A DNA stretch of 52,813 nucleotides from an uncultured Methanosarcinales archaeon (GTDB taxonomy: Archaea; Nanobdellota; Nanobdellia; Woesearchaeales; GW2011-AR4): positions 1-52,813 of the forward strand of contig CAYVTQ010000003.1 of assembly GCA_964454865.1 (NCBI GenBank). Reading direction: 5' to 3'. Made by a program: the position numbers and the translations under genes. Positions 5,906 to 50,468 of this stretch are shown here, piece after piece. The notes under the pieces are model-generated. The model worked only from the letters and a program-made list of their open reading frames with translations. It was not told the DNA's origin and made no database searches. The first letter of the stretch is position 1, and each line of letters begins with the position of its first letter.

Positions 5906-6023
5906 TTAATACAAAATTATGAATAATATAGTTTACCAATTATTCCTATAAGAATAATTTAAGCAAAAACTTATATAATATGCAGGAATCCCTTTCCTAA
6001 AAACAAAGGGCGAGGTGGTTTAT

Positions 6024-7214
6024 ATGCCAAAAATAGAGTATTTTACATCAGAAAGCGTTACTGAAGGCCATCCTGACAAGATATGCGACCAGATAAGCGA
6101 CGCTATTCTTGACACTTTAATAGTACAGGATCCATATTCAAGGGTTGCTGTTGAATGCCTGACAACTACGGGATTAGTTGTGGTGGCAGGAGAAGTCACA
6201 ACACAGGGCTATGCAGACATACAGGGAATTGCAAGAAGGACATTAAGGGACATTGGATATACAAATCCCGAGTTTGGAATTGATTTCAATGACGCAGGAG
6301 TTTTAGTTAGCATTCACGGACAAAGCGCAGACATTGCGCAGGGCGTAAATGAAGCAACAAACAAGGAGCAGGGAGCCGGCGATCAGGGAATGATGTACGG
6401 CTTTGCGACAAATGAGACTCCTGAGCTTATGCCTTTGCCTATTGTTATGGCGCACAAATTGACAAGGAGGCTGTCGGAAGTAAGGAAAAACGGGGTTGTG
6501 AAAGGGCTTGGCCCTGACGGCAAATCTCAGGTTAGCATTGAATATCACGACGGCAGGCCAAAAAGGATAAGCGCAGTTGTTTTGGCGCAGCAGCATACTG
6601 AGGATATTTCTGAAGAGAAACTGAAAGAAGAGCTGTACGAAAGAGTCATAAAGCCTGTCTGCGGCAGCATGATGGACAACAACACAACTGTTTATATCAA
6701 CGCAACAGGAAAGTTCGTGATTGGAGGCCCTGAAGGGGATTCAGGAGTTACAGGAAGGAAGATCATTGTTGACACTTACGGCGGAATAGGAAGGCACGGA
6801 GGAGGCGCTTTCTCAGGAAAAGACCCTTCGAAAGTCGACAGGAGCGGAGCCTATGCAGCAAGGTATGTTGCAAAGAACATTGTAGCTGCAGGCTTGGCTG
6901 ACAAGTGCGAAGTCCAGATTTCGTATGCAATTGGTGTTGCGAAGCCTACTTCCATAAATGTAGACTGCTTCTCCACAAATAAGATTCCGGAAGCAAAGAT
7001 TGTCGAGCTTGTCCACAAGAACTTCGACTTGAGGCCGAGAGCAGTGATAGAAATGCTGAACTTGAGAAGGCCCATTTACAGAAAAACAGCAGCCTATGGG
7101 CATTTTGGAAGGAACGACCCTGACTTCACATGGGAGAAGACTGACAGGGCTGAGGCTTTGAGGAAAGATGCGGGGCTAAGGCCTATGGAAACTGAAAGGG
7201 AGATTGAGGTTTAG
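6024..7214 (+). CDS. metK: S-adenosylmethionine synthetase, bacterial/eukaryotic MetK type
   Basis: Motifs [29 protein letters not shown] and [28 protein letters not shown] 6 nt upstream of ATG 6024. Confidence 0.95.
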
Positions 7215-26048: not shown

Positions 26049-29000
26049 CTAAATGCCCCCGGAATACCTTGAGTTGACTTTGGTGTCCTGAGGAGCTGCT
26101 TTAGCTTCCTGCCTTGTTTTTTCTGCTTTTTCCTCCTCGATTGACTTTGCTTTGTCCCCGACTTCCCTGAATGCTGTGCATAATGCATAGTATTTCTCAA
26201 TTCCTTTTAAGTTCCCTCCGGTATAGAACGGGACATCGTCAAACAAAATGCAGGCTTCATCATAATCCAAAGTGTCGGCGAATATTATCGGAGCTGGATT
26301 AGGCTCGTTAGGCTTCATACTGGGGCTGCCATACTGCATGTTCCTCTGCAGCTCGGTGAATTTGTCGTTTTCATTCAGCAATAACGGCCTTTGCAGGAGG
26401 TTTTTTGACCTCAAGCCTATATTGACTCCTACAGTCTTTTTTGCAGTAGGGGGATTTGTCTCTGCCATATTTATCTTGAATGAGATTAAATAGAGGTATT
26501 TATCCACATTTTTGCCCTGATCATCAACAGCAGTATAGGGCTGCTTTGTAGCCTTGATGAAAGCGCCGATATTCGGATAGCCATCAGGAGTTGCTGTGAA
26601 GACAAATCCTTCGTCTGAAGGGGGAAGATCTATTTTCGCCAATTCGCATAATTTTGACTCAAACAAATCCTGCTCCAAAACTATTCCCAAAGCGCTGTTC
26701 TTTTCCATTACCTTCATCCATTCCTTCATCACATCATCCCCTAGGAAATAGGAATATGTATCGCTCAGGAACCTTCCGGTTGGGGCTGATTTTCCCAGTA
26801 TGTCGTCCAGAGCAGCAAAGAATTTCTGCGAGTCCCACTGCCCCCTTGTCAGGAAGTTCCTGCCTTCGGCGTATTTGTCGTGAAAGGTATTCCATGCGGA
26901 TTTTTGATTATCAGTCAATTCTGTTAGCTTGCCATCATCACCGAATTTCTTAGGAGGCTTTCCGTAATTTGGACTGCCCGGAATTAATAAAGTTGGATCG
27001 TGCTGTATTCCTGAAATCTTTATTATTTGATGAGCCTCTCCATCTCGAACTGCACTCATAGTCAAAGTAGCCCTTCCATCAGAGCCCAGCTCGTAATTTG
27101 CATATGTGGGGTCAGTTACTAGTGTATTTGTCTCATCAAAAGCTGATCCCTTTGGCAGCCTTACACTTATAGCCGCAACATAATCATTTCCGCTGGCGTC
27201 CCTTTTCACAGTCCTTGCAACAGACTCTTCTGCTAACACAGTATCACTCCAAAAGCCGTTTGCATCCTGCTTTGGAGGGGTGTTTTTTCCGCTGTAAATT
27301 ATTATTGTTTTTCCCTGGTCAGTCATTTGCTTGACAGCTTTCCCACCCATTACCGCTGTTATTTTCCCATTCGCGAGCAAAACATAATCGTCTTTTGAGC
27401 CTATTTTTGAGAATTTCTTTTTATCGTCTGTTTCTGCTGCAGGAGAAGAATCAAAGTTATTTGATGTTACAGATGTTATTCCAAGTTTGGCGGCTTCTCT
27501 CAAAGCGTCGTCTTTAACAAACTCATCGCCGGGCATCTTTGCATACTCGGCTCCATTCATCTTTATTGACCTTAACATGCCTCTGTCGTCTCTGACATTC
27601 AGATCGACACTTTCAATTTTTGAATAATCAGCAGCGTGATAAAATCTTGCTTTGGGACCAGATTCTATAACTTTGTTTACTCCTGGCTTATATACTTCTG
27701 TTTTTCTTCCTATCTCATTGCCGGCAGAATCTCTCCAAATAGTTTCCAAAGTCATTTGGGCTTCGCTTGAGCTTGGATTATTTTCCAAACCTTTGGCGTT
27801 CTTTATTGTTGATATATACTCTCTTCCCTGAGCAATATGCAGAAAGCTTCTTTCTATTATTGTGTCCTTATCTTCGGATGTTAAGATAGAGATTTGGGCT
27901 AATTTTCCTCCGCCAGGCATATCTACATTAGGAATAAGCTGAAGCGTTGCTTTTCCCTCTTTCAATGGAATTTTATTGCTGCTTCCGTCCCAATTATCCT
28001 TATCAATTTCCTCCGGATTAAGAAGCCTTGCGTCATATGCGAATGATGTTTCAGCAGTTCCATCTTTTTTTGTTAATGTCCTAATACCATCCTTATCAGG
28101 CTTTGAAATAGTTATTGAAGTTATTACCGCATTTTGCGCTGTATCCACCGTCAATACATTCGAGCTGAAATCAGGCTGCTCTCCGGGAGGCTGCGCTGCT
28201 CCCACTACTTGGCCTGGCGCTGATGGAGGGAGCCGAATTCCCCTTATATTGGCCTGCAGCTCCTGATAGCTCTTGGCGCTTGCATCAAATATCATGACAT
28301 GGCCTGGCTTTACAGCCTTAAATTGATTTTTTAATTCAGGAAATCTCGAAGCAAGAGACAGGTATTCTGCTTCTGTCAAGGCAGTTCCCTTATTTGCGCC
28401 TTCAAAGCTGTAATAGATTGTGCCTGATGTTGGATTTGCGATGCCATCTTTCCCCCCGACTTTAACCTGCAATTGGCTAAGCACTCCTTTAAGCTCTGCA
28501 GAAGTCTCAATCCCTTGGGGCTGTCTTTGCTTATCTTTTTCCGCTTCCTTTTCCCTGCGCTGCCTGTCGCGCTCTTGCTTTAGATCGTATTCTGCTTTCT
28601 TTTTATCAATATATTCCTGAACTGCATCCGAATCCTTATTTTTTAAATTAATTAATTCTTCCCGCGTTACATATTTCCTTAGCTCCCTAATCCCGTCTTC
28701 TGTATTTTCCTCTGCAACATTCATAGCCACAGCAGCAAAATCGTCCCCGAATTCATTTTCAAGCTGAGCCATTTTGGCATAATCATTTTTATCAATTCCT
28801 ATCCCTCTTATGTAGGCATCATAATCATCAGGGTCAACTTTATTTTCGCCTGCATATAGTTCTACTATGCCTTCTGTTGTTATTTCGCTGTTAATTGCGC
28901 GATACTGCTGTGCTATCTTATCATTAACGCCATTGGATTCTAATTGTTTCTTGTCCAACCCTTTCAAAAGAGGATTGGGCCATTCTTGAATTGGGGCTTG

Positions 29001-30437
29001 GGCTGCTCCTGACGGCGGGGCTGCTGCTCTTTTTGCCAGCAGGGCTTTGTTTATTGCCTTTGCTGTTTTCTCGCCCACTTTTCCGTCACTTGTTAAAGGA
29101 TTGTTCTGCTCATCCTTATTTTTGCTCTGGAAATCCTTAACAGCAGCGCCTATTTTTTCAGGAGTGCTTAAATCAGCATAGCCAAGCTCTTTAAGCGCTT
29201 CAATTAAATTATTATCAGTGGCAGGTATCGTGCCTGCGCCTGACGGGACTGAAAGCTCTACTGCAGGTTTTCCCGCAGGAGCCTGCTGCTTTGCCTTTGC
29301 CTCAGCCAGCGATTTCGTTAAAGCCTGCAAGTCTGGATGGCTTTTTTTTGTTTCAGCATCAAAAAGCCTATCAACGCTTCCGCCAACACTCCTAAATCCT
29401 ACCGGATTATCGCCATTAAAATAAATTATTCTGCCATCGGCACCAGTATAAAACCTGTCATAAGCATTGCCCCCAATGTTTCCCGGCTTAATTGTAAGGG
29501 TGAATTTAGAAGTCGTTGCGCCTATTTGGACATCAACTGATGGTATGTCTGTAATGATAGCTGCGCCGCCTCCCTGCCCCAGTGGCACTCCATCACCTTG
29601 TTTGGTAGTTGCCGGCCCAACAGCTCCAGCAGATCCTTTTGTAATCTCATTGTTAATAGCAGGATCCAAATTTGGGATTAAATTAACATAGCTTAGAGCT
29701 AAGGCATATTTTTGCTTCTTCTGTTCAGGATCTTGAGTTGCTCTTACTTGCTCTAAATATTTGTTAAAATCATGTTCAAGATTAGCTTTTGCATCAATGC
29801 CTCTATCAATCGCCTTTTTGTGATATTCCATTGCTGTTGCATAATCTTCCTTACCCCTGTAACTAACACCTATATAAGGATATACACCAGGATCATCCCT
29901 AATTTTTAAGGCTTTCTTGTAGAATTCTATTGCTTCATCATATTGTCTTGAATTAAATTTAGAAACCCCAGTTCGAAAATTTAAGTCGTAAGCTTCTTGA
30001 ATTGTTAAAGGAGCGGTTTGTGAGCCGAATAGTATCTGGTTAGCTTGCGCTTGTGTTATTGTTTTGCCATTTATAGAAGCCCTTCCAGATTTAGTTACTT
30101 CAGAGATTTTTTGTGTCAATTCAGCGGGCGATTTCGCAGCCAGCAGACTTTGAATGAGCTTTACATCTTCATCATAAATTCTATCATCACCTTTGAATTC
30201 CGAAGTCCAATCTTTCCTACCTGATTCGCTATTAGGGTACACCTTTACTTCTGGTTTTTCTTTCTCATAATTCCATTGTAAAAATACTTCATCATCAATA
30301 CCCCAGTTACTAAAAACCAGCTTTACAATATCTGAAGCGCCTGTAGTTGTTGTTACTTGTCCACTTGTTGTCTGAGAATATACACTAATCATAATAATAA
30401 AAATACATGCCATAATCGCCAAAATCTTCTTTATCAT
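26049..30437 (-). CDS. Giant secreted protein (1462 aa): Sec signal, TPR, PG-binding-like module, coiled coil
   Basis: N-terminal signal MIKKILAIMACIFIIMISVYS/QT. TPR-like YDEAIEFYKKALKIRDD...YATAMEYHKKAIDRG. LGY...AVKDFQ...DGKVGEKT pattern. KE/RQ-rich coiled coil. Confidence 0.8.
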   Translation of the reverse strand: MIKKILAIMACIFIIMISVYSQTTSGQVTTTTGASDIVKLVFSNWGIDDEVFLQWNYEKEKPEVKVYPNSESGRKDWTSEFKGDDRIYDEDVKLIQSLLAAKSPAELTQKISEVTKSGRASINGKTITQAQANQILFGSQTAPLTIQEAYDLNFRTGVSKFNSRQYDEAIEFYKKALKIRDDPGVYPYIGVSYRGKEDYATAMEYHKKAIDRGIDAKANLEHDFNKYLEQVRATQDPEQKKQKYALALSYVNLIPNLDPAINNEITKGSAGAVGPATTKQGDGVPLGQGGGAAIITDIPSVDVQIGATTSKFTLTIKPGNIGGNAYDRFYTGADGRIIYFNGDNPVGFRSVGGSVDRLFDAETKKSHPDLQALTKSLAEAKAKQQAPAGKPAVELSVPSGAGTIPATDNNLIEALKELGYADLSTPEKIGAAVKDFQSKNKDEQNNPLTSDGKVGEKTAKAINKALLAKRAAAPPSGAAQAPIQEWPNPLLKGLDKKQLESNGVNDKIAQQYRAINSEITTEGIVELYAGENKVDPDDYDAYIRGIGIDKNDYAKMAQLENEFGDDFAAVAMNVAEENTEDGIRELRKYVTREELINLKNKDSDAVQEYIDKKKAEYDLKQERDRQRREKEAEKDKQRQPQGIETSAELKGVLSQLQVKVGGKDGIANPTSGTIYYSFEGANKGTALTEAEYLSLASRFPELKNQFKAVKPGHVMIFDASAKSYQELQANIRGIRLPPSAPGQVVGAAQPPGEQPDFSSNVLTVDTAQNAVITSITISKPDKDGIRTLTKKDGTAETSFAYDARLLNPEEIDKDNWDGSSNKIPLKEGKATLQLIPNVDMPGGGKLAQISILTSEDKDTIIERSFLHIAQGREYISTIKNAKGLENNPSSSEAQMTLETIWRDSAGNEIGRKTEVYKPGVNKVIESGPKARFYHAADYSKIESVDLNVRDDRGMLRSIKMNGAEYAKMPGDEFVKDDALREAAKLGITSVTSNNFDSSPAAETDDKKKFSKIGSKDDYVLLANGKITAVMGGKAVKQMTDQGKTIIIYSGKNTPPKQDANGFWSDTVLAEESVARTVKRDASGNDYVAAISVRLPKGSAFDETNTLVTDPTYANYELGSDGRATLTMSAVRDGEAHQIIKISGIQHDPTLLIPGSPNYGKPPKKFGDDGKLTELTDNQKSAWNTFHDKYAEGRNFLTRGQWDSQKFFAALDDILGKSAPTGRFLSDTYSYFLGDDVMKEWMKVMEKNSALGIVLEQDLFESKLCELAKIDLPPSDEGFVFTATPDGYPNIGAFIKATKQPYTAVDDQGKNVDKYLYLISFKINMAETNPPTAKKTVGVNIGLRSKNLLQRPLLLNENDKFTELQRNMQYGSPSMKPNEPNPAPIIFADTLDYDEACILFDDVPFYTGGNLKGIEKYYALCTAFREVGDKAKSIEEEKAEKTRQEAKAAPQDTKVNSRYSGGI

Positions 30438-30488
30438 GCCGAATGCAGCTCCAAAATTATTGCTTTTTTTCTCATTTTCCTTCCCATC

Positions 30489-33400
30489 TCATTCCTCCAA
30501 AATGCCAAGCTGCCTGCAGGGCTCCTGGCTGACCTGCTTGTTCAAGTCACCGAAATTCTGGACCTGTGATTTTGCAAGAGCCGTTGTAGCCGAAATTTTT
30601 GACACAAGCTCCAATGTGAGCTTTATCTGGCATCCGTAATATGCAAAGCCGTGCTCCATGCTCGGGTTGGTGCAGTACTGCCTGCATTGGGAGCGGGATA
30701 TAAGTTCAACTCCGACGTATCCCAACGCAAAAGGATTGAGCAGCACCTGCCTTATCAGCTCCTGATAATGCTTCCAAATCTGGTAGTGGGGCAGCCAGAA
30801 AAATACTTCTCCGACAACATATTTGCATACCTGCTGGTTCTTTATCTGCTCGCAGACAGCAGGATCCATTCCCTGCGCAACATACTGCTCAAGGCATGAG
30901 ACGTATCTGCATTTTAGCTGCATGAACTTGTCTGCATTATATACAATGCCGGGCAGGCAGCCAAACATCATTGAGCCGAGCAGGCTGTTCTGGGGATTCA
31001 TGTACCTGGCAAGGCTGTTGGGAGGATTGACTGTCATTCCCCTTGCTTCTGCTGATTGCTTTTGGGCATCCTTCTGCTCCTGCGTAGCCGGGGTGCACGG
31101 CTCATCAGAGCCTATTATTTTTCCGCCAACACAAATATCAAGCTTATCCAGTTTCATATCCACGGATGCCATATGGGATGCCAGCGGCAATTCATCCAGA
31201 ACATCCAGAATCTTGTTGCCCCAAAGCGTCTTGTCGCATGTCAGGTAAGCGCAGAATTTGCCGAATGTTTTCATTAAGCCGTGGCCCACATCCTGCCCTG
31301 TCTGCTCTGAATGGCATACTGCATTTCTAATAGTCCCTATTTTTTCTTCCAGAGGTATTCCTAAAATCTTGGCTATTCTTGCAGCAGCCGCTTTCGCGTT
31401 TAAGATTTTGGCTATAGTCAATAATGTCTCCATAACCTTGTAGAATGTATTAAACCAAGCGCAGATTTTTTGCGCAAAGAGCATCAGCTTCTTGAACGAT
31501 TCAAGCTTCTTGTTCCACTTCACAATGGAATCCTTTTCCTTCTCAATCTTTTCCCTCATTGCCTTTGCGGGGTCAGGAAGCTCAAACAGGCCCATCTTAA
31601 ACACAACAGCCTCCTCTTCAGGAATACTGTTTACAACATAAGCCTTTGATTGAGTGTCAAGAATTCTGGATTGAATGTTAAGCGTGCACACAATATCCAT
31701 ATATTCAGTTTCAGGCATCTCCATCTTGTTGAAGGTAAGAACAACAACAGGCTCTATGGTGCCGGGCGTGTCTCTTATAACAACTGCATTGCTTACATAG
31801 CTTTGCGTTCCTGAAGCAGAGCATTTAGGATCCTTTACCTTGATTGAAACAGTCTTCAAGGTGCCTGCGTCTTTTGTGGCATCCGCCAGAAGATTGCCAT
31901 TAGGCTCAAGCTTTACTGTGCAGTAAGACTTCATGCCGTTTGGAATGACCAAAACTGCTCCCCTGTCAATATTTTCCGGAGAGCATTTTTTCTCCTTAAT
32001 CTTCCAATAATCAACCTGCCCCGAAACTGCCCCACTAACTGAAATTTCTTTTTCAGCTATTCCTGCATTTCCAGCCGCGTCAGTAAATTTAAATTCAATG
32101 GTGTGTTGTTCGCCAGGATTGCTGAAGGAAATATCCCACTTGCACAGCTTATAGCCGATATAATCCTTCTCCTGGGCATCTGAGCATGTTATAGTTCTCT
32201 TATCATTTGCAAACGGGGTGAAATCGGCTTCTGCTGTCAGGGGATTTTCATCCTTGACATAAGCTATAACATTCACTGTGCCTGTCTTGATGAATCCTGC
32301 TTCTGCGCCGGTGTTTTTTATTATTATATCATTATCAGATTCAACGATTGGACTGACAGTGTCAATTACTACATTCACTTCCTTATTGCCAGTTAGTGGG
32401 TTTCCAAGAATGTCTTTTGTGCCGGAATCCAGCGTCAATTTTCCAGGGATTAATACAACATCCTGCCATACGCATTCAAACTTCTGATCTTTTTTAGCGC
32501 ATGCCGGCGCCTGGGTTATCTGGGGCTGGTTCAGCTTGATTTCAGAGCCTGCCAATCCTGTCGCCTCAGTGAAAATAATCTTTATATTGTTAGAGGAAGA
32601 TTTTGCGTATTGTTTTGCCTGATCCTGCTGATTATTTATTGAAATTGAATCAACTGCCAATTCCTTGTCTTCCTGGGCAAGGCTTAATGACAATTCCTTG
32701 AATCCTTTGCCCGCATCTTCCAGCTTGTTGCCGTATTTATCCTCTGCCTTTATGGAAAATTTTAACGGGCTGCTCCATTGCGTTATTGCTATGCCTTCCC
32801 ATTTGCAGAGAGTGTTGCTTCCAGATGCGGAGCATTCATTCGGCGCTCTTTCATCGGCAATTGAAGGGTTAATGTCCTTGAATATTCCCTTTACAGTGTC
32901 TGCCTTTACATCTTCGTCTTTTGTCCCTGAAAATTCAACATGGATTGAAAGCCCCGCCACTTCCCTGCCGGCAGGCGGCCTTTGCTTGATCTCTATGCCT
33001 CCTTTAAAAATTTTAAATGTTCCAACTACAGAAGGAGGATTTCTGTCCACGTTAATAGGAATTCGCTCAGTTACAGTGTGGCCGACCCAGTCTGACAAGA
33101 CTACAATTATTGCATTTGGGCCGTTGCTCAAGGTTTCTTTATCCCCTCCAAATTTTTCAGGCAGCTCATAAGGGTCCGATTTTGCTTCTGCGCATGCTCC
33201 AAGATCTGAAAGCTTCACTTCTCCAATCAGATTTTCGGGCCTAGCTGCATCATCCTTGAAAAATAAAATATTTTTCAGCCCCGAGCATTTTCCTCTGAAT
33301 TTGGCACAATCTTCCGGCTTTGTGCTGCCCGGGCATGGATTGTCTATTGCCTCATAAGATATCCTGTATTTTTTATTTGCAATCTCGGATATTGCAGCGG

Positions 33401-33863
33401 GCTTTTTTACGAATTCGGGCCTGTTAATGTCGAATGTGTATTCTTTTTCCTCCCTACCAGCCTCTTGTTTCCTGTCTTTATCCTTGTAAAGGACTGCAGT
33501 TGCCTCATGGGTTGCTAATGCAGCACTTTCCCAGACATATGCTGCTCCGGCAGCGGCTCCTTCGGGATAAGTATATGTGCATTGGGAATTTGTTGTTGGA
33601 AAATCCTTGCATTCTGTAAATCCCTTGTTTGAATTGAGCATTGACACCCTGTCCTTAAGGTCAGCAACAGGAGCAAAATCCAGCAAAACAACAAAAACTA
33701 TCCTTTCGTTTTCCGCAAGATAATTTTCAACGCCGCTTTTCTCTCCCTTGGCATAAAATTTTGTTATGCTTTCAGCATAGACGCTGAGAGAGTTTAGAGG
33801 CAGCATTAACACTAACAGAATCATGAAGCATGCGATTGTCTTCAAATATATTTTTTCTGTCAT
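30489..33863 (-). CDS. Giant secreted protein (1124 aa): Sec signal, Ig-like beta-rich region, Cys-rich helical C-terminal module
   Basis: Signal ...LPLNSLSVYA/ES. Paired cysteines throughout. About 15 Cys in the last roughly 340 aa. ATGA overlap with the upstream gene. Confidence 0.8.
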   Translation of the reverse strand: MTEKIYLKTIACFMILLVLMLPLNSLSVYAESITKFYAKGEKSGVENYLAENERIVFVVLLDFAPVADLKDRVSMLNSNKGFTECKDFPTTNSQCTYTYPEGAAAGAAYVWESAALATHEATAVLYKDKDRKQEAGREEKEYTFDINRPEFVKKPAAISEIANKKYRISYEAIDNPCPGSTKPEDCAKFRGKCSGLKNILFFKDDAARPENLIGEVKLSDLGACAEAKSDPYELPEKFGGDKETLSNGPNAIIVVLSDWVGHTVTERIPINVDRNPPSVVGTFKIFKGGIEIKQRPPAGREVAGLSIHVEFSGTKDEDVKADTVKGIFKDINPSIADERAPNECSASGSNTLCKWEGIAITQWSSPLKFSIKAEDKYGNKLEDAGKGFKELSLSLAQEDKELAVDSISINNQQDQAKQYAKSSSNNIKIIFTEATGLAGSEIKLNQPQITQAPACAKKDQKFECVWQDVVLIPGKLTLDSGTKDILGNPLTGNKEVNVVIDTVSPIVESDNDIIIKNTGAEAGFIKTGTVNVIAYVKDENPLTAEADFTPFANDKRTITCSDAQEKDYIGYKLCKWDISFSNPGEQHTIEFKFTDAAGNAGIAEKEISVSGAVSGQVDYWKIKEKKCSPENIDRGAVLVIPNGMKSYCTVKLEPNGNLLADATKDAGTLKTVSIKVKDPKCSASGTQSYVSNAVVIRDTPGTIEPVVVLTFNKMEMPETEYMDIVCTLNIQSRILDTQSKAYVVNSIPEEEAVVFKMGLFELPDPAKAMREKIEKEKDSIVKWNKKLESFKKLMLFAQKICAWFNTFYKVMETLLTIAKILNAKAAAARIAKILGIPLEEKIGTIRNAVCHSEQTGQDVGHGLMKTFGKFCAYLTCDKTLWGNKILDVLDELPLASHMASVDMKLDKLDICVGGKIIGSDEPCTPATQEQKDAQKQSAEARGMTVNPPNSLARYMNPQNSLLGSMMFGCLPGIVYNADKFMQLKCRYVSCLEQYVAQGMDPAVCEQIKNQQVCKYVVGEVFFWLPHYQIWKHYQELIRQVLLNPFALGYVGVELISRSQCRQYCTNPSMEHGFAYYGCQIKLTLELVSKISATTALAKSQVQNFGDLNKQVSQEPCRQLGILEE

Positions 33864-36619
33864 TTTATGTCTGGCGTGAAATAGCTCCTGTAAAACCTTG
33901 AATACTCGTCCAGCTTCTCAAGCTGGTTTAGATGGTCAATATCTTTAGGGCTGTTCACATCGTCATCTATGCCAAGGTCGATTGCATAAAATATTATATC
34001 TCCCTGCTGGTAAAGCGCAGGATTTGTGAAAAACACATTTTCAATGTTAACTCCACCTTCAGGAAAAATGGCGTCTTTAGCCTCTCCAAGAGGCTTATAG
34101 CTGCGCTCATCGGCATCTTGATCCTGGATAATCTCGCCGTACATGCAGCTTGTCGGCTTGTTTGTCTGAGCTGCGATAAATGCCTCATCGCCTGAAAATG
34201 AGGAAGGGCTCATTATAGCAGCGGAAAAATCCTCCTTGTCATCAGCATTGAAATCATTTGTTCTCAACGCCACAAGCTGCTCTACCCATTTTCCATCGGC
34301 GCCGAGGCACCTTACAGAGTAATCATAAGAATTGGGTATTCCGGGTATGCCGCTAGTTAAATGGGTGTATCCTTCCTCCGGAAATGGAATATAGCTGCCG
34401 TCGACAGTTCTTGATGCCAGCTTGTACTCGCATTTGGTTTTCGCATTTGTTTCTATTGCAAGGTAGCCCTGCTTTGTCCTGAAGCTTACAGGAGTTTTTG
34501 AGGATACAACTAAGTTTCCGGGCGCAGGCTGGGCTGAGGAAATGTCCATAGGGCCTATTTCAATATACTCCTGCTTCTTCGGATCAAGGCATTTCACGCT
34601 GTATTTATGGCTGCCCGGCTGCAGGCCTTTAAGCTTGCCCGCATGCACCAATGCAGAAGCGTCTTCGCCAAAATCTATGGCAGGAATTGTTATTTTTTTG
34701 CTGAAGCCTGAAAAGAGATTTAAAGAAGGCACTTCCATCTTGCTTTCAGGAATTACAACGCGGTCGTTCAAAAGCAGATTTATTGTTAAGTCATATGTGC
34801 CGTGCGCAAGAGTAATATTCGGAGGATTTGAGTAGTCTTTGCCTGTAAAAATTCCGAATGCGGTAAAAGGCTCCTCCCCAGCGTCCCCTTTTCTTGTAAG
34901 CGACAAAATTGCCTGCTCTTTCTCATTCAGCTCTTCTGCCTTGTACTTGTCAAAATCCCAGTAATCGCCGTATTTGGATTTTATAAAGAGTTTTTTATAC
35001 ACCTTGAATCTTTTCTCGACCAGTGGCTCAAGCCTGAATTCAATTTCGGCCCCGGGATTGGAGTCGGCATCATAATTCTTGGTCAGTCCGAGAAACCTCT
35101 CTGATTTGACTGTGACAGTGCCGCCGAAAGTGCCGTGGGGAAACTTATATTTTAAAATGCCGTTTTCATCTGTCGAGCCAATCGCGCAGCTTATCTCTGT
35201 TACAGTGTAGTATATTTCGGCAGAAGGAATGGGATTATTAGGGTATGTTGCATTGGCTACTTTTATTTCAACTTCGGGCCCGTCTCCTTCCGCGCTGCAT
35301 AAAGTCAGCCCTTCAAAAAAGCCTGATTCCCGGGAGTAGGCATCTGCAACGGCAGCTCCTGTCGGAATTGTCGGAGGCACTCTGATGCCAAGATGCTCCG
35401 GCACGTTGTCGACAATTTTGCTTTGCAGAAAGAAATTGAAGATGTATCCTTCATCGCCGAAAATAAATGCTGACGGATCGGTTATTGTGACTAAAACAGG
35501 ATACTGCACATCATAGGGATATTCTGATTTTTTTATTGGGAAGCCGGGGATTATGCTTGTTATTGATTCCTCCCTGCAGACAGGCTTGTTTCCCTTGCAA
35601 ACTTCAAATTGGAAAGGCTGCCTTGGATTCAGGTCATCCGGAAAATACCCGAACCTCACTTCATAATTTTCAACAGAAGCCGAGGTTATAGGCAAGGTAG
35701 TAAGCTTGTCATGGATTCCTTTTTCAATTTGGTCTTCAGTATCTAGGAGTTCATATCTTTTTGAATCCAACACCTGAAGAGCTTGAACATAAGAGCTTAA
35801 TATTTTTTTAAACTGCTGTTTTGCTGTTTCTTTGATTGTTATATCTGAGCCAAAGCCAAATTTAAGGGAATTCACAGGAGGCATAATTTTATCGGACGAA
35901 TAAACTGTAATCAAAGTCCTTGTGTATTTCTCAAGATACCTGTGGTCGGATTGGTTTTTTGCTATTGCAAACGCCAAATCATACATTTTTTTGATGCTGA
36001 AAGGCACCCTGACAAAAAATTTCCCAATCTCGAATTTTTGCCCCCCTCTTTCTGCCTTTATTGGATAGCCCACTTCAATGATTGTGTCCTCGTCAGTAAT
36101 GGTGACTTTTGGCGCCGGCTTTTCTTTTGCTTCTATAATAAACCCCTGCCTGGAGAATTCGTCAAAATCATTAATGCAGACATTTATCTTTTCTGCAATG
36201 TAATCTTCCAGCTCGCCCCCTATAGTTTTAAACCCGCGCCTTGAATCAAGTCCTGGCATTTGAAGGCGTGGCTGGCTGCCTCCTGCATAAAACCAGTATG
36301 CGACTTTGTGCTGCACTGAGTTTGGAAAAAATTCAAATGGATCAGGAGGAGTTATATATCCTCCGTTCCAGCCTATTTCCTCATAGCCCATTACAGCAGT
36401 ATCGTAAATGCACCTGTCAACAAAGTCCTGTATCGGGTTGAATTCAGCGGGAATTTCCTGCGCTTCAATTATGCTTTCTTCTATTTTTATTCCTGTCTGC
36501 ACTTTTGTTGTTGTGTAGAAATAAAATCCCCCTATAGCTATTATGAGGATGCCGACAATCAGGAATAGTGATGTTGCCTGCGCTTTTCTTGAAATTTTAT
36601 GCACTGCAATATTACTCAT
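33860..36619 (-). CDS. Large surface protein (919 aa) with type IV pilin-like (class III) N-terminal signal/anchor
   Basis: N-terminus MSNIAVHKISRKA/QATSLFLIVGILIIAIGGFYFY. CarboxypepD_reg-like stretch AIGSTDENGILKYKFPHGTFGGTVTVKSERF. Start is 2 nt after the RHH stop. Confidence 0.8.
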   Translation of the reverse strand: MSNIAVHKISRKAQATSLFLIVGILIIAIGGFYFYTTTKVQTGIKIEESIIEAQEIPAEFNPIQDFVDRCIYDTAVMGYEEIGWNGGYITPPDPFEFFPNSVQHKVAYWFYAGGSQPRLQMPGLDSRRGFKTIGGELEDYIAEKINVCINDFDEFSRQGFIIEAKEKPAPKVTITDEDTIIEVGYPIKAERGGQKFEIGKFFVRVPFSIKKMYDLAFAIAKNQSDHRYLEKYTRTLITVYSSDKIMPPVNSLKFGFGSDITIKETAKQQFKKILSSYVQALQVLDSKRYELLDTEDQIEKGIHDKLTTLPITSASVENYEVRFGYFPDDLNPRQPFQFEVCKGNKPVCREESITSIIPGFPIKKSEYPYDVQYPVLVTITDPSAFIFGDEGYIFNFFLQSKIVDNVPEHLGIRVPPTIPTGAAVADAYSRESGFFEGLTLCSAEGDGPEVEIKVANATYPNNPIPSAEIYYTVTEISCAIGSTDENGILKYKFPHGTFGGTVTVKSERFLGLTKNYDADSNPGAEIEFRLEPLVEKRFKVYKKLFIKSKYGDYWDFDKYKAEELNEKEQAILSLTRKGDAGEEPFTAFGIFTGKDYSNPPNITLAHGTYDLTINLLLNDRVVIPESKMEVPSLNLFSGFSKKITIPAIDFGEDASALVHAGKLKGLQPGSHKYSVKCLDPKKQEYIEIGPMDISSAQPAPGNLVVSSKTPVSFRTKQGYLAIETNAKTKCEYKLASRTVDGSYIPFPEEGYTHLTSGIPGIPNSYDYSVRCLGADGKWVEQLVALRTNDFNADDKEDFSAAIMSPSSFSGDEAFIAAQTNKPTSCMYGEIIQDQDADERSYKPLGEAKDAIFPEGGVNIENVFFTNPALYQQGDIIFYAIDLGIDDDVNSPKDIDHLNQLEKLDEYSRFYRSYFTPDIK

Positions 36620-36621
36620 TT

Positions 36622-36786
36622 TTATTTCTCCTTGTTCAGCTCTTTTTGTATTAATTCAAGATCATAGAGCTTCTGCTCCATCAGCTCACGAGCCAGCATG
36701 GACTTTTTCTTTCCAAGCCGGGCAGAAATTTTCTCCAGCAATTCATTAATTTCCTTAGATACAGTTATCCTTATTTGAATGCTCAT
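36622..36786 (-). CDS. Ribbon-helix-helix (CopG/Arc/MetJ-like) DNA-binding protein, 54 aa
   Basis: Manual translation, below the ORF-track size cut-off: MSIQIRITVSKEINELLEKISARLGKKKSMLARELMEQKLYDLELIQKELNKEK. Beta-strand then two helices. GGAG 6 nt upstream. Confidence 0.7.
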   Translation of the reverse strand: MSIQIRITVSKEINELLEKISARLGKKKSMLARELMEQKLYDLELIQKELNKEK

Positions 36787-36807
36787 TTAGTCTCCAATAT
36801 AACTAAA

Positions 36808-36884
36808 TTTATGCTTAATTATGTATACTTTAAGTACTACTATATAAAATTTGTTATTTAAAAGTTAGAATTTTATGCTTAATT
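36808..36884 (-). promoter_or_regulatory. Promoter/operator region of the RHH operon: two identical 13-mers flanking a TATA-like box
   Basis: TTTATGCTTAATT occurs at 36808-36820 and 36872-36884. The second is part of the inverted repeat TTTTATGCT..AGCATAAAA. TATA-like TTTTATATAGT on the minus strand lies at about 36838-36848. Confidence 0.35.
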
Positions 36885-37035
36885 TAGCATAAAAAAAGTA
36901 TTTTTTAGGTATAAAATTGAGACTAAAAATTTATAAATATACTTTATTTATACTGAAAAATGGATAAATATTTACCGGATATTTTGCCAAAATCAATTCA
37001 AGAGATAAATATTGTATAAGGGATTTAGCTGGCTT

Positions 37036-37137
37036 TAATCCTCCTTGCCGTTGATTGAAATAAATTCGAGGCGGAATTTTAATGGCAGTAAAAATTCCGC
37101 CGAGTGTTTCTTGGCCGCGAAGCGACGGAAAGAATTG
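37036..37137 (+). mobile_element. MITE-like structured repeat, family 2, copy 3 (internally deleted)
   Basis: Retains the left end (TAATCCTCCTTGCCG), the GGCGGAATTTT-N9-AAAAATTCCGCC hairpin and the right end. Lacks the GCGAGGCG...CGCCTCGC hairpin. Confidence 0.6.
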
Positions 37138-37389
37138 CAGCAACTTCAAAGATCTAAAAGTCCCTGTGCAGCAAAGAAGTTACTCATGGAAGGGAATACA
37201 TTGTAATAGCCTCCAGATAAATATAAATCCCAATAATATCCAAGAATTAAATAAATTCAAATCCGCAAGCTTTATAAAGTAGTGATTAATTCCAAATTGA
37301 ATGTATAAGTATCCTTCTTTAGATAAAGCACTATAAATTTATAGAATCTTTATACTAGGGAGGGATAACTATGCCTTTTCACGCTAAAT

Positions 37390-37596
37390 GCCCTGGTAGT
37401 GTAGCCTGGAACAGCGGAAAAGGACGTGATGCTGCAGGAACCATCATGGAGCCCTGTCAACAACTTTGGCAGACCGGCTCCGACTCGGGTTCAAAACAAC
37501 CTTTTCTTTCGCCTCCTCTGCGAGTCGGCAAAGAAAAGCTTGACAAAAAATAAGGATTTGCTGCGCAAATCGTTGGTGGAAGTCCCGACCAGGGCG
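37390..37596 (+). tRNA. tRNA-Asp(GUC) with three introns (D-loop about 30 nt, anticodon loop 15 nt, T-loop about 87 nt)
   Basis: Acceptor GCCCTGG/CCAGGGC plus discriminator G. D-stem GTGT/TCAT. Anticodon stem GAGCC/GGCTC with loop CTGTCAA, interrupted after the loop (37461-37475). T-stem TCGGG (37485-89) and CCCGA (37584-88) separated by TTCAAA plus a long insert. Exon sequence resembles archaeal tRNA-Asp. Intron borders are approximate. Confidence 0.7.
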
Positions 37597-37614
37597 CTCT
37601 TGCTCAATCATCAC

Positions 37615-37737
37615 GGGCCGGTAGCTCAGCCTGGTAAAATTTGCCTTTGGGCAATAGAGCATCTGTCGGGAATATACAAATATTCACGGGTGTGACTTTT
37701 AATCAGGTGGTCGCGAGTTCGAATCTCGTCCGGCCCA
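37615..37737 (+). tRNA. tRNA-Lys(UUU) with two non-canonical introns (D-loop 20 nt, anticodon-stem 29 nt)
   Basis: Removing 37637-37656 and 37666-37694 gives a canonical 74-nt cloverleaf: GGGCCGG TA GCTC AGCCTGGTA GAGC A TCTGA CTTTTAA TCAGG TGGTC GCGAG TTCGAAT CTCGT CCGGCCC A. No encoded CCA. Confidence 0.85.
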
Positions 37738-37752
37738 TTAATAAAGACAAAG

Positions 37753-37998
37753 ATGACAAAGAAAAAATTCAAGGTCGATAAGCATATATTGACGCCTAAG
37801 CACGCAAAAATCAGCGATAAGGAAAAAGCGCAGATTTTGGAGAAGTACGGCATAACTGAAAAGGAAATGCCAAAAATACTAAAAACTGATTCTGCTATTG
37901 CCGGCCTTGACATTAAAGCATGGGAGATTATTAAGATCACAAGAAAAAGCCAGACTGCGGGCGAGGCTCTGTTTTACAGGGTGGTGGTTGATGTATAA
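37753..37998 (+). CDS. rpoH: DNA-directed RNA polymerase subunit H (Rpo5)
   Basis: HILTPKHAKISDKEKAQILEKYGI...LPKI...ITRKSQTAGEALFYRVVV. Starts 15 nt after tRNA-Lys. Confidence 0.9.
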   Translation: MTKKKFKVDKHILTPKHAKISDKEKAQILEKYGITEKEMPKILKTDSAIAGLDIKAWEIIKITRKSQTAGEALFYRVVVDV

Positions 37999-39475
37999 GT
38001 ACGGCAAAATTCTCATCCAAAAATATTTTGAGGAGCAGAGCTTTGTAGATTCAGATATAGAGTCTTTCAATTATTTTGTTGACAAGGAGCTGCAGAAAAT
38101 AGTCGAAGAGAACAAGGAAATTATTCCGACCATCATCCCCCACAACATTGACGATTTCAAGATAAAGCTGGACAAGATATGGGTTACAAAGCCGGAGATA
38201 ACAGAAGCTGACGGCAGCAAGAGAAAAATTTTCCCGATTGAAGCAAGGCTGAGAAAAATAACTTATTCTTCGCCTATTTTCATCAGTGTAAGCGCCCATA
38301 TAAATGGCGTGCAGAGGGAAAGCTTTGAGACACAGATCGGAAATCTTCCGATAATGCTGAAGAGCAAATGGTGCCATCTGCACAAGATGAGGAGGGAAGA
38401 GCTTATACAAAAAGGGGAGGATCCTGACGAGCCCGGCGGATATTTTATCATCAATGGAACCGAAAAGGTCCTGATTAAGATTGAAGACCTCGCATCAAAC
38501 AAAATGCTTATTGATAAAGACGCCACAACAGGGCAGTTCGCAGGCAAATTGTTCTCTGAATACGGCTCATTCAAAATCCCCCATACCATGGACAAGCAGA
38601 AAGATGGGATTTTTTACCTGACCTTCACAAGAGTAAGGAAGATACCGGTTGTTGTATTGATTAAAGCGCTTGGGATACTCAAAGATGAGGAGATAACAAG
38701 GCTTATTTCTTCAACAAAGACTTATGATGAGGTTCTGATAAATCTTCTTGAGTTTGTTTCAATAAAGACGCAGGAGGAGTCGCTGGATTATATCGCAAAG
38801 AGAATCGGAATCACCCAGTCCAAGGAAGTGAGGGTGGAAAGGACAAAGGAGATACTTGACAAATATTTAATGCCCAATCTTGGAATTGACGAGGCAAGCA
38901 GAATCAGAAAGGCTTACAGCATCTGCAAAATGCTGAAGAGGTACCTGGGCGCCCTGAATGGGGAAATAGGCGTTGACGATAAAGACCACTACATGAACAA
39001 AAGGCTCAAGATGAGCGGAGACCTGCTTGCCGACCTGATAAGGCTGAATCTTAAGGTGCTTATAGGTGATTTGCTGTACAATTTCCAAAGGACTGTCAAG
39101 AGGGGAAAATTCCCATCAATAAAGAATATGATCAGGGACAAGCTGCTTACGCAAAGGATATATTCTTCGATGGCAACAGGAGTATGGGTCGGCGGCAGAA
39201 AAGGGATAAGCCAGAGAATCCAAAGGCTGAATCACCTTGAGACATTATCCCACCTTCAGAGAGTAGTAAGCCCGCTGAGCGCTGAGCAGGAGAACTTTGA
39301 GGCCCGAGAGCTGCATCCGACACATTTGGGAAGGCTATGCCCTATTGAGACTCCTGAAGGTACAAATATCGGATTGAGGAAGAACCTGTCATTGCTATGC
39401 ACAATCTCCGACGAATCGAACAGGGACGATGTAATCAAGTCGCTGAAAAACATGGGGCTTAGGCTGGTGGCTTAA
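37991..39475 (+). CDS. rpoB2: DNA-directed RNA polymerase subunit B'' (N-terminal half of Rpo2)
   Basis: GGYFIINGTEKVLI and others. Start set at ATG 37991, overlapping the rpoH stop. The longer track ORF (37898) is an upstream read-through. Confidence 0.95.
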   Translation: MYKYGKILIQKYFEEQSFVDSDIESFNYFVDKELQKIVEENKEIIPTIIPHNIDDFKIKLDKIWVTKPEITEADGSKRKIFPIEARLRKITYSSPIFISVSAHINGVQRESFETQIGNLPIMLKSKWCHLHKMRREELIQKGEDPDEPGGYFIINGTEKVLIKIEDLASNKMLIDKDATTGQFAGKLFSEYGSFKIPHTMDKQKDGIFYLTFTRVRKIPVVVLIKALGILKDEEITRLISSTKTYDEVLINLLEFVSIKTQEESLDYIAKRIGITQSKEVRVERTKEILDKYLMPNLGIDEASRIRKAYSICKMLKRYLGALNGEIGVDDKDHYMNKRLKMSGDLLADLIRLNLKVLIGDLLYNFQRTVKRGKFPSIKNMIRDKLLTQRIYSSMATGVWVGGRKGISQRIQRLNHLETLSHLQRVVSPLSAEQENFEARELHPTHLGRLCPIETPEGTNIGLRKNLSLLCTISDESNRDDVIKSLKNMGLRLVA

Positions 39476-48825: not shown

Positions 48826-50439
48826 TTAAGTTTTTATCACTATAATTTCAAATGTATCTCCTCCTATCATTCCGCCTGAATCAGTTACAGATACTTTAAA
48901 AGTTGCTCTAACTCCTTCTTGAGCACTTGATATTCCATCACAGGTAACAAATCCATTATTAATATCACATCTTATAGAGGTCGAAGTTGTTTCTGTAAGC
49001 TTATCAACTCTGTATATCATTCTTTCAGGTCTATCCTCTCTATCATTAGCAAATTCCCATATTTTCTTAATTAATAAATTAGTATCATCAGAGTCTAATG
49101 TAAACTTGTCTTGATTCCCAAAGTCAATCCTCGGCGCCGTATTCCCTCCAGGCTGTATCTGCCCAGCTTTTCTTGCCTTATGTTCTTCTTTATCGCCTAA
49201 TTGCCTTATCAGCCTTTGGTTTGTTGCAGGGTCTTCATCGCCTACTTCCATTCTCTTTCCTTTCAAGTCTCCGGGTATTTTTTGAATGTCGTCAGGCAAT
49301 GGCTCTCCGCGTTTGCCGTCATCCTGCTCAAGCCTTTTAGGATGATCCTTGCCGGTCTTTATTGAGGCTCCGCCTGTAGTTGTAATCAGTCTCGGAACGG
49401 CAACTGCCTTCAGCTGCTTCCTGCACTTGTCGTCTATTATCTTGGCAAGCTGGTAAGCCACCCTTTTCTCTTCGCTTAAGGCGTTAAAACTCCAGACAAG
49501 CATTGGATCTGACTTGACAAGCACATCCGTGTCGGCATCGCCGCCTTCAACCTTCTCAAGATACTGGCTCAAGTCATTAAAGCAGTCTGTCTTGCTTAAG
49601 GTTTCTATGAACTTGACTTCCTTCGCCTCTATGCCATTCTTTGGCTTTATGAAGAACTCAACTTTTGTGGTTTCCGGGAAGCATGTGCTTACCCTGAGCC
49701 TTACTTCAATGTTGCTCTTTCCCTCAGCATCTTTCTCCTGCGCATTTTGTATATTCTCCCTTTCCTTTACATGGCAGTCATCGTCTTGCTTTTGAGTGCC
49801 GCAGGCAATATTCAATAATTCATCCAAATCATCTCCCTGCACTATCTCAGGCACAGTGGTGCATTCCACCTGCTCGCAATAAGGGATTATGTTTACCCCA
49901 TCTTTTCCCAATCCTTCCATCTCTATCTTTACAGTCCTGCTGGAGCTTGTATCAAAGCAGAGATTGTATGGGTAATCCACGCTTAAGCCCTGAAGATTGT
50001 ATGCGGCAGCCATTTTGCCGCCGTTCATCACAAAGAAATTCTTGCCTGTGTTGGATTCAATTTCGCTTTTTATTAGGGGCTCGTCTTTTAAGGAATCAAA
50101 AATGATTTTTTTAGCTTCTGCATCTGTCTTTATCTTGTTTAAGTTCACAAAATAAGCCCGGTCTCCGCATGGGACTTTAAAGGTAAACTTATCCCTTGAC
50201 TTGTAGCCCTGCGGGCCGGCCAACAACGAAAGCCTGTTCGGCAGATCCCCCATGAATTCTATATTCTTCAGGTCGCAGGAGCCTTCTCCAAAGAAGGAAG
50301 TTGTTTTGGCGAAGAAATAGAACAATGAGCCTATGACTAAAACTGCCATTATGACTATAACGAGGAAAGAAGGGGCTATTTCAAGGGCTTTTCTGCTAAG
50401 TTTTTTAATCATTCTTCCGGAGTTTACTATTTTATGCAT
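48826..50439 (-). CDS. Surface protein (537 aa) with type IV pilin-like N-terminus and C-terminal cadherin/Ig-like domain
   Basis: N-terminus ...MIKKLSRKA/LEIAPSFLVIVIMAVLVIGSLFYFF. C-terminal ...GVRATFKVSVTDSGGMIGGDTFEIIVI. The start may instead be the internal Met at 50412. Confidence 0.7.
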   Translation of the reverse strand: MHKIVNSGRMIKKLSRKALEIAPSFLVIVIMAVLVIGSLFYFFAKTTSFFGEGSCDLKNIEFMGDLPNRLSLLAGPQGYKSRDKFTFKVPCGDRAYFVNLNKIKTDAEAKKIIFDSLKDEPLIKSEIESNTGKNFFVMNGGKMAAAYNLQGLSVDYPYNLCFDTSSSRTVKIEMEGLGKDGVNIIPYCEQVECTTVPEIVQGDDLDELLNIACGTQKQDDDCHVKERENIQNAQEKDAEGKSNIEVRLRVSTCFPETTKVEFFIKPKNGIEAKEVKFIETLSKTDCFNDLSQYLEKVEGGDADTDVLVKSDPMLVWSFNALSEEKRVAYQLAKIIDDKCRKQLKAVAVPRLITTTGGASIKTGKDHPKRLEQDDGKRGEPLPDDIQKIPGDLKGKRMEVGDEDPATNQRLIRQLGDKEEHKARKAGQIQPGGNTAPRIDFGNQDKFTLDSDDTNLLIKKIWEFANDREDRPERMIYRVDKLTETTSTSIRCDINNGFVTCDGISSAQEGVRATFKVSVTDSGGMIGGDTFEIIVIKT

Positions 50440-50468
50440 TCTATTTAAGTTTTTCTAAAAACAACCTT

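Follow-up and report, generated by a model that had tools for sequence, protein, structure and literature searches.

The window analyzed here, a stretch of 52,813 nt from contig CAYVTQ010000003.1 of assembly GCA_964454865.1 (all coordinates are window positions), carries a tRNA-Asp gene and a tRNA-Lys gene in tandem just upstream of the RNA polymerase gene rpoH, and these are interrupted by five inserts, four of them at non-canonical positions, where the initial annotation of this DNA had placed them. We interpret these as two functional, co-oriented tRNA genes interrupted by endonuclease-dependent archaeal introns, with a probability of about 0.9. This interpretation is based on four independent lines of evidence, namely the canonical products obtained by splicing, the bulge-helix-bulge (BHB) geometry of the junctions, conservation and covariation of the exons but not of the introns, and the occurrence of the junctions as contiguous DNA in orthologues. 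The host is a member of the Woesearchaeota (DPANN) with a small, A/T-rich genome of mesophilic type; the initial annotation had associated such tRNAs mainly with Thermoproteales and a few small-genome archaea, and the host fits the small-genome DPANN case and not that of the Thermoproteales. The two genes are organized as follows.

37390-37596, + strand: tRNA-Asp(GTC), with three introns and a mature length of 75 nt including the discriminator G73; identified by ARAGORN on the spliced sequence, by a structural anchor scan, and by orthologues in about 72 loci
37390-37410, 37441-37459, 37475-37495, and 37583-37596, + strand: tRNA-Asp exons (21+19+21+14 = 75 nt)
37411-37440, + strand: Asp intron 1, 30 nt, in the D-loop after A20
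37460-37474, + strand: Asp intron 2, 15 nt, at the canonical 37/38 position in the anticodon loop
37496-37582, + strand: Asp intron 3, 87 nt, in the T-loop at 59/60, with two internal hairpins
37597-37614, + strand: intergenic spacer between tRNA-Asp and tRNA-Lys, 18 nt (mostly 2-50 nt in orthologues)
37615-37737, + strand: tRNA-Lys(TTT), with two introns and a mature length of 74 nt including the discriminator A73; identified by ARAGORN on the spliced sequence, with identical borders given by ARAGORN -i, and by cloverleaf covariation among 27 distinct spliced orthologues
37615-37634, 37655-37665, and 37695-37737, + strand: tRNA-Lys exons (20+11+43 = 74 nt)
37635-37654, + strand: Lys intron 1, 20 nt, in the D-loop after G19 in the BHB register, with two equivalent junctions
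37666-37694, + strand: Lys intron 2, 29 nt, in the 5' strand of the anticodon stem at 30/31

Removal of the inserts by hand yields a 75 nt tRNA-Asp(gtc) and a 74 nt tRNA-Lys(ttt), both of which ARAGORN recognizes as full cloverleaves, and which have the features expected of these tRNAs, G73, G10-U25, and C38 in tRNA-Asp, and A73 in tRNA-Lys; CCA is encoded in neither gene. The predicted spliced junctions include, for example, TGTAGCCTGGA joined to CCATCATGGAG and TCGGGTTCAAA joined to TCCCGACCAGG. It had been proposed that canonical cloverleaves appear only once the inserts are removed, and ARAGORN with default settings indeed reports zero tRNAs in the whole 52.8-kb window, and clean calls on the spliced sequences. 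The insert sizes proposed at that time (20 and 29 nt in tRNA-Lys; about 30, 15, and about 87 nt in tRNA-Asp) are the same as those we measured. The exons of both genes are colinear and contiguous, within 207 nt for tRNA-Asp and 123 nt for tRNA-Lys, with no split or permuted arrangement. The borders had been described as ambiguous, and three of the inserts do allow 1-3 equivalent junctions, with the choice among these settled by the BHB register.

General tools (ARAGORN and the Rfam/Infernal tRNA model) recover neither of the two window genes. Rfam gives zero matches in the whole window at the gathering threshold, and a permissive Rfam search of positions 37000-38100 yields chance-level matches alone. 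When ARAGORN is run with intron search it returns a tRNA-shaped object at exactly 37615-37737, forced to one intron and miscalled; further window calls made with relaxed settings were rejected as spurious, having 'introns' of 475-1988 nt that overlap open reading frames (ORFs). We also searched for hidden tRNA genes with a structural anchor scan of the T-arm and acceptor that permits a 59/60 intron, and within the window this identifies the Asp and Lys genes only, with no further hidden tRNA. The initial annotation had pointed to intact tRNA-Asp and tRNA-Lys genes elsewhere as an indication of pseudogenes; no intron-less copy of either is present within the window.

Positions 37385-37740 were scanned for BHB motifs with a custom scanner that is blind to the cloverleaf, and whose only criteria are a 4-bp helix, a bulge of 3 nt on the 3' side of each strand, and cleavage past the second nucleotide of the bulge. 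The top match is the Asp 37/38 insert, and the Lys 30/31 insert is also returned, with its borders as the cloverleaf requires. On individual inspection, a 4/4 central helix with its 3-nt bulges is found in each of the five inserts, at the very junctions from which the cloverleaf is regained; the possibility of junctions without BHB-like motifs had been raised at the outset, and a motif is present at every one. Those at Asp 37/38 and Lys 30/31 are strict hBHBh' motifs, and those at the Asp D-loop, Asp T-loop, and Lys D-loop are relaxed (of the HBh'/hBH kind). A 4/4 helix in the BHB register is found at about 2% of random position pairs across the window (about 0.02 per junction), and the joint chance of five in-register junctions is about 6.5e-8, allowing for the equivalent junctions (1-3 per insert).

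The five motifs vary in their flanking helices and predicted stabilities (cuts are marked by arrows). At Asp intron 1 the central helix (CCTG/CAGG) has bulges GA↓a and aa↓C, a 5-bp inner helix, and a weak outer helix, and has a pair probability of about 0.9-0.97 in local folds of the D-arm or once the other introns have been taken out. Asp intron 2 has a 7-bp outer helix and a central helix (CTGT/GCAG) with a pair probability of about 1.0 in the full precursor. At Asp intron 3 the T-stem (5 bp) constitutes the outer helix, the central helix is TTCA/TGGA with bulges AA↓a and ag↓T, and the inner helix is weak (CAAC/GTTG with a 1-nt slip). Lys intron 1 has a GCCT/GGGC central helix, bulges GG↓t and aa↓T, an inner helix of three A-U pairs, and the D-stem as its outer helix, beyond an A.A mismatch adjoining the bulge. 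Lys intron 2 has a CATC/GGTG central helix, a 4-bp outer helix, and an inner helix with 7 of 8 pairs, and its pair probability is about 0.97 in the full precursor. In three cases (Asp D-loop, Asp 37/38, and Lys 30/31) the BHB is the conformer predicted to dominate. The Asp D-loop, anticodon-loop, and T-loop BHBs each extend a cloverleaf arm; the Lys 30/31 BHB is formed by an alternative pairing of the 3' strand of the D-stem with the anticodon loop, in which the D-stem strand is part of the outer helix. Because it borrows this strand, the Lys 30/31 BHB could not coexist with the Lys D-loop BHB, implying that splicing of tRNA-Lys would be ordered. Several inserts were also proposed to form their own hairpins, and both of the examples given (CTTTTCTTT...AAAGAAAAG and GATTTGC-tgc-GCAAATC), which lie in the 87-nt insert, are present in the minimum-free-energy fold.

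Related loci were identified in a search with RpoB'', taking one genome per species, and the 80 loci recovered (designated L001-L080; 71-81% identity) are all from Woesearchaeota/Nanoarchaeia (DPANN). Many public genome bins carrying the rpoB/tRNA locus, including L001, L002, L004, L048, L076, and L077 among others, are labelled as 'Methanosarcinales', 'Parcubacteria group bacterium', 'Aminicenantes bacterium', or 'Syntrophales bacterium', and these labels likely reflect either taxonomic misassignment or contaminating contigs. Both mature tRNA sequences were mapped with a custom spliced aligner onto the 1.3 kb upstream of rpoB'' at each locus, and a total of 810 kb of relatives' DNA was examined.

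Of the 80 loci, about 74 have the Asp-Lys tandem ahead of rpoH, i.e. all those with sufficient upstream DNA, and it is interrupted in nearly all of them. The inserts are at four recurrent sites, the D-loop (19-21), the anticodon stem (30/31, in tRNA-Lys), the anticodon loop (37/38), and the T-loop (59/60), at which both their presence and their length vary freely. The mean number of introns per gene is 1.73 for tRNA-Asp and 1.88 for tRNA-Lys, no gene having more than three, and just two Asp and two Lys genes lack introns altogether. We applied a strict criterion in which every intron is required to be in a 4/4 BHB register and the spliced product to be ARAGORN-valid with the expected anticodon, and all introns can be so placed in 56 of 72 Asp orthologues and 56 of 76 Lys orthologues. 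The validated Asp 59/60 introns in these orthologues range from 15 to 161 nt, such that the T-loop intron of about 87 nt, which had been considered unusual, is ordinary in this lineage.

When junctions were assigned by the aligner alone, blind to BHB structure, 180 of the 276 introns are in a 4/4 register, compared with 0-50 of the 276 in slid controls in which the 3' partner was moved 1-3 nt off the BHB register. The in-register fractions are highest at Lys 30/31 (26/27), the Lys D-loop (38/42), and the Asp T-loop (52/60); the low figures for the Asp D-loop and Asp 37/38 are due to aligner errors at exon mismatches, and a refined analysis recovers both. The mature Lys sequences have a mean column identity of 95%. 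Among the spliced Lys orthologues there are compensatory changes in 10 of the 21 cloverleaf pairs, and in four of the five pairs of the stem that is cut by the 30/31 intron, compared with 0-2 in the slid controls.

Four of the five predicted junctions are found as contiguous DNA in relatives lacking the intron, with 0-2 mismatches in 22 nt. These are Asp 37/38 (in L006, L007, and L008), Asp 59/60 (in L045 and L057), the Lys D-loop (the exact junction, in five loci), and Lys 30/31 (in L008, L037, and L066). For the fifth junction, in the Asp D-loop, L005 has an identical spliced D-arm together with its own unrelated 25-nt intron at the same site.

The intron bodies are unrelated to each other. 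There is no detectable relative for 171 of 202 orthologous introns, and the five in the window have no homologue. We considered whether the 87-nt intron could be a repeated mobile element and rejected this, as its core is present in a single copy in the window and has no homologue among the 202 orthologous introns. A Lys 59/60 intron in one relative (L034:583-716) and an Asp 59/60 intron in another (L038:5463-5546) are clearly homologous over about 80 nt and share a hairpin with compensatory changes (GCGGGAT...ATCCCGC versus GTGAGGT...ACCTCAC), which indicates that an intron has passed from one tRNA gene to another at this site. No Rfam family was found within the introns of the window, nor in those of nine relatives with long T-loop introns. 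No group I or group II intron is matched at the Rfam gathering threshold, with the only match, to a group II fragment, being at chance level (E = 0.49; 16 bits compared with a 49-bit threshold), and the inserts are 15-87 nt compared with the more than about 200 nt expected of such introns. A C-box-like GTGATGC in the Asp D-loop intron was examined as a candidate C/D guide RNA and dismissed as too short.

The anchor scan was also applied to the relatives outside of the Asp-Lys locus, where it identifies 29 more tRNA-like genes in the 810 kb. Of these 21 span 100-205 nt and only 3-4 are of uninterrupted length; decoys give 2-4 matches, all longer than 350 nt. Examples are at L065:2553-2670, L025:3739-3841, and L068:3801-3993, and there are two clean cases, a tRNA-Pro(GGG) in L065 and a tRNA-Asp in L025, each with a 59/60 intron. 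The anticodons are ambiguous for most of the 29, and we used only their number and length distribution, together with the decoy control. In the same 810 kb, ARAGORN reports only 10 uninterrupted tRNAs other than Asp and Lys. Heavy disruption of tRNA genes is therefore not confined to the Asp-Lys locus. At the locus itself, the Rfam tRNA model at the gathering threshold recovers one of the 18 Asp and Lys genes in nine loci (L001, L003, L010, L016, L019, L034, L037, L038, and L039), this being the L003 tRNA-Lys, which has a single intron. With routine Infernal/Rfam annotation, the number of tRNAs in this lineage will be severely underestimated.

The tRNA genes are preceded by a conserved leader and followed closely by rpoH, with the following features.

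37263-37279, + strand: probable archaeal promoter of textbook form, consisting of a transcription factor B recognition element (BRE) and TATA box, ccgcaagcTTTATAAAg, kept as TCCGCAAGCTTTATAAATAA in more than 25 orthologous loci; its function is predicted from consensus and spacing
37301-37303, + strand: conserved initiator-like ATG, about 24 nt downstream of the promoter
37310-37368, + strand: leader hairpin between the promoter and tRNA-Asp, in which TATCCTTCTTTAG (37310-37322) pairs with CTAGGGAGGGATA (37356-37368) around a loop of about 33 nt
37370-37376, + strand: conserved CTATGCC
37753-37998, + strand: rpoH (RNA polymerase subunit H/Rpb5; Pfam RNA_pol_Rpb5_C, E = 1e-24), starting 16 nt past tRNA-Lys

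The leader (37250-37389, + strand) is a segment of about 140 nt that is 70-78% conserved in more than 30 Woesearchaeal genomes, far above any of the introns. RNAalifold predicts only six weak pairs in this region; the full 14-bp leader helix was specified by hand and then upheld, being 89.6% paired over 31 distinct sequences compared with 41-64% when the partner strand is slid. The 5' strand is invariant, and the variation in the hairpin is compatible with wobble pairing for the + strand only; the hairpin has no match in Rfam. Most genes of this genome lack a Shine-Dalgarno (SD) sequence, and the lack of one at rpoH is therefore normal. In this mostly SD-less genome, the 3' strand of the hairpin together with an ATG resembles an SD sequence plus start codon. 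We considered whether a BHB could serve to remove the whole tRNA pair from an mRNA leader and so bring the conserved SD-like/ATG block (37360-37376) together with rpoH, but only low-complexity 4/4 matches with poor flanks were found and we rejected it.

The rpoH gene heads the archaeal operon rpoH-rpoB''-rpoB'-rpoA'-rpoA'', in which rpoB is split, with the genes for NusA, S12, and S7 located downstream. In the region between tRNA-Lys and rpoH (37738-37752) there is no terminator and no space for a separate promoter, and because of this 16-nt gap rpoH and the RNA polymerase operon are probably transcribed through both tRNA genes, at least in the window, and freed by tRNA processing. Among 71 loci tRNA-Lys and rpoH are separated by a median of about 38 nt, and about a third of the loci have a spacer no longer than 25 nt; in some relatives there is a TATA-like box directly after tRNA-Lys. 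The Asp and Lys genes themselves are probably co-transcribed as one dicistronic precursor.

The enzymatic steps that we propose for this locus are modeled on established archaeal tRNA splicing (PMC4090602, PMC7714728). Transcription would begin from the BRE/TATA element at about 37263-37279 and yield one precursor, possibly continuing on into rpoH. A BHB would form at each exon-intron boundary, with its 4-bp helix and two 3-nt bulges on opposite strands, and EndA would cut past the second bulge nucleotide on each strand. An RtcB-type ligase would then join the exons, with the introns released (as circles in other archaea), and RNase P, RNase Z, and a CCA-adding enzyme would complete the tRNA ends, the latter being included in the scheme because no CCA is encoded. 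We infer transcription, cleavage, ligation, and the order of splicing from the DNA.

Several points weigh against the interpretation that the inserts are spliced introns, beginning with splicing itself, which is a deduction. In thermodynamic folds the BHBs of the Asp T-loop and the Lys D-loop are only minor conformers, with p of about 0.2 and about 0.06 respectively, and one of the flanking helices is weak in three of the five motifs, such that an enzyme tolerant of relaxed motifs would be needed. Neither EndA nor RtcB is among the ORFs of the 52.8-kb window, and no database-wide protein search for them was made. About a quarter of the orthologues fail to resolve automatically under the strict 4/4 criterion. 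Finally, 99.8% of cloverleaf cells are paired across 27 distinct spliced Lys orthologues, a percentage that is inflated by pre-selection with ARAGORN, though the compensatory changes are not.

One alternative is that these are decaying tRNA pseudogenes with random insertions, and that the true tRNA-Asp and tRNA-Lys are encoded elsewhere. Both genes are missed by standard detectors and our view is limited to 52.8 kb of the genome, as this would allow, but the same interrupted pair is present at the same locus in about 70 genomes with RpoB'' proteins that are only 71-81% identical. The exons are conserved and covary and the inserts turn over, reflecting purifying selection, and the inserts are confined to BHB-competent sites; furthermore, DPANN genomes have about 35 tRNA genes in total, leaving scant room for redundancy (bioRxiv 10.64898/2026.05.13.725050). 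We therefore regard pseudogenes as very unlikely. It is similarly improbable that tRNA-Asp is functionally split at the T-loop insert, with its 5' part and its 14-nt 3' part being transcribed separately, the A/T-rich 87-nt insert providing a promoter, and then spliced together in trans in the manner of Nanoarchaeum equitans. An A-rich stretch, CTTGACAAAAAATAAGG, within the insert is compatible with this arrangement, and split tRNAs are known in related DPANN, with 30/31 being the split site of N. equitans tRNA-Lys(CUU) (PMC4090602). However, the pieces are colinear and contiguous, and orthologous 59/60 introns are as short as 15-30 nt, too short for a promoter. There is no conserved promoter-like block in the introns, whereas a strongly conserved promoter is located upstream of the whole gene.

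Retention of the inserts would give rise to enlarged tRNA-like molecules, or to some other structured RNA in the rpoH leader, and the position of the locus directly upstream of the RNA polymerase operon, with which it is probably co-transcribed, as well as the conserved hairpin preceding it, could be seen in this light. We give this almost no credence, as inserts in the D- and T-loops would abolish the D/T tertiary interaction, neither the sequence nor the length of the inserts is conserved, the junctions have exactly the geometry of EndA substrates, and intron-less orthologues have plain tRNA sequence. An origin as a small mobile element (similar to a miniature inverted-repeat transposable element, with terminal inverted repeats) or as an assembly artefact is just as hard to credit. 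The inserts do fold into hairpins, and the homologous introns in different tRNA genes of L034 and L038 show that there is some mobility, but mobility at BHB sites is documented for genuine archaeal tRNA introns (PMC4090602) and hence is no argument against introns; the 87-nt core moreover has no second copy in the window and no homologue in the 810 kb of relatives. The architecture recurs in independent metagenome-assembled and single-cell genomes from many studies, which argues against an artefact. In our view the comparative data exclude pseudogenes, assembly artefacts, and retained expansions, and leave spliced introns as the only reasonable reading.

Elsewhere in the window, an ORF at 6015-7214 (+ strand) matches three S-AdoMet_synt Pfam domains (E = 1e-70 for the C-terminal domain), and presumably codes for an S-adenosylmethionine synthetase of the bacterial/eukaryotic type. 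The gene may have been acquired horizontally, as is common in DPANN. Three consecutive ORFs at 26049-36619 (- strand) code for proteins of 1462, 1124, and 919 aa with N-terminal hydrophobic segments, for which Pfam gives only one TPR repeat, in the first ORF; a role at the cell surface or in interaction with a host is probable. The three ORFs stop about 770 nt before tRNA-Asp, and the intervening DNA includes about 630 nt (36620-37250) that is A/T-rich, ORF-free, and unconserved. Two adjacent ORFs of 537 and 535 aa at 48826-52076 (- strand) have several hydrophobic segments and no Pfam match, and although their equal size suggested that they could be paralogues, this was rejected from a BLASTP comparison (E > 1).

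Many aspects of these genes have precedents. The 20/21, 30/31, and 59/60 positions are published non-canonical sites of archaeal introns, and the highest number published for any one gene is three introns (PMC4090602, PMC8450103, PMC4033280). The Thermoproteales, including Pyrobaculum calidifontis and Thermofilum pendens, resemble the window and its relatives in having up to three introns per gene, and in having introns shared between tRNA genes, which implies transposition (PMC4090602, PMC8450103, PMC4033280). These are hyperthermophilic crenarchaea, however, in contrast to the mesophilic-type, A/T-rich, small-genome DPANN host described here, and their enzyme is an (alpha-beta)2 endonuclease with a crenarchaeal loop, whereas the enzyme to be expected here, from the literature, is an alpha4 EndA with an L3 loop (PMC5829648). 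At 1.7-1.9 per gene, the intron load of the Asp-Lys locus exceeds a published Thermoproteales genome average of 0.84, with two genes here being set against whole genomes.

Multiple and non-canonical tRNA introns are also known in other DPANN, namely ARMAN-1 and ARMAN-2 of the Micrarchaeota and the Woesearchaeota and Pacearchaeota studied by Kaneta et al. 2018, and incomplete DPANN tRNA sets have been ascribed to undetected disrupted genes (PMC5829648, PMC3239211, PMC4033280). The ARMAN enzyme is an epsilon2 EndA, which is not expected in the present host. The DPANN alpha4 EndA with an L3 loop, including that of one Woesearchaeote, is associated with increased tRNA disruption (PMC5829648). The tRNA-Lys(CUU) of N. 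equitans and Staphylothermus is split at 30/31 with a relaxed BHB at the junction (PMC4090602), and is thus of the same tRNA family and disrupted at the same site as Lys intron 2; in the window, unlike these, the parts are contiguous with a 29-nt cis intron and no separate loci, and the isoacceptor is UUU. Introns in the D- and T-arms with up to three per gene are likewise found in the Cyanidioschyzon merolae nucleus and in cryptophyte nucleomorphs, and are BHB-dependent in C. merolae (PMC3728597, PMC4090602), although both the hosts and the enzymes are eukaryotic, the nucleomorph introns are often only 3-24 nt, and some of the genes are permuted, none of which holds for the window genes.

The intron positions, the occurrence of three introns per gene, and the raised level of tRNA disruption in DPANN are thus already published, and the case described here joins a known kind. 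The survey by Kaneta et al. 2018 includes one Woesearchaeota genome among the DPANN and gives proportions only (PMC5829648), and a survey of 208 complete Nanobdellota genomes (2026) reports order-level 'missing' tRNAs, with split genes suggested as a possible cause (bioRxiv 10.64898/2026.05.13.725050). In the literature that we searched, no paper gives a lineage-wide picture of the locus, with its four recurrent sites, turnover of intron bodies, and conservation in about 70 genomes.

A broader proposal, which we offer tentatively and with considerable doubt, is that Woesearchaeales as a whole carry the heaviest tRNA-intron load of any known lineage, with an alpha4-type endonuclease, long thought strict, that would serve all of these introns; in addition, as the Asp-Lys pair is located in the leader of the RNA polymerase operon, behind the conserved hairpin, tRNA processing by RNase P, RNase Z, and EndA may release the rpoH mRNA and so couple tRNA maturation to polymerase expression. 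This is suggested by the approximately 1.8 introns per gene at the locus over about 56 genomes, by the fact that, of the other tRNA-like genes in the 810 kb, two thirds or more are interrupted, and by the location of the introns at four fixed hot spots, with bodies that turn over completely and occasionally jump between genes.

The value of these findings is practical and not conceptual, lying in DPANN tRNA annotation and in endonuclease substrates, and the accepted picture of archaeal tRNA splicing is unchanged. Both tRNA counts and the inference of 'missing' or 'split' tRNAs in Woesearchaeota and other DPANN can be artefacts of undetected multi-intron genes. The more than 200 introns at four sites, with both strict and relaxed BHBs, constitute a substrate panel for testing the broad specificity of the DPANN alpha4 EndA with an L3 loop. 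Lastly, the positions of the introns persist across an order while their sequences turn over, one intron is clearly shared by two different tRNA genes, and a cis intron occupies the 30/31 site at which the tRNA-Lys of N. equitans is split, all of which bears on the relationship of introns, intron transposition, and split genes.

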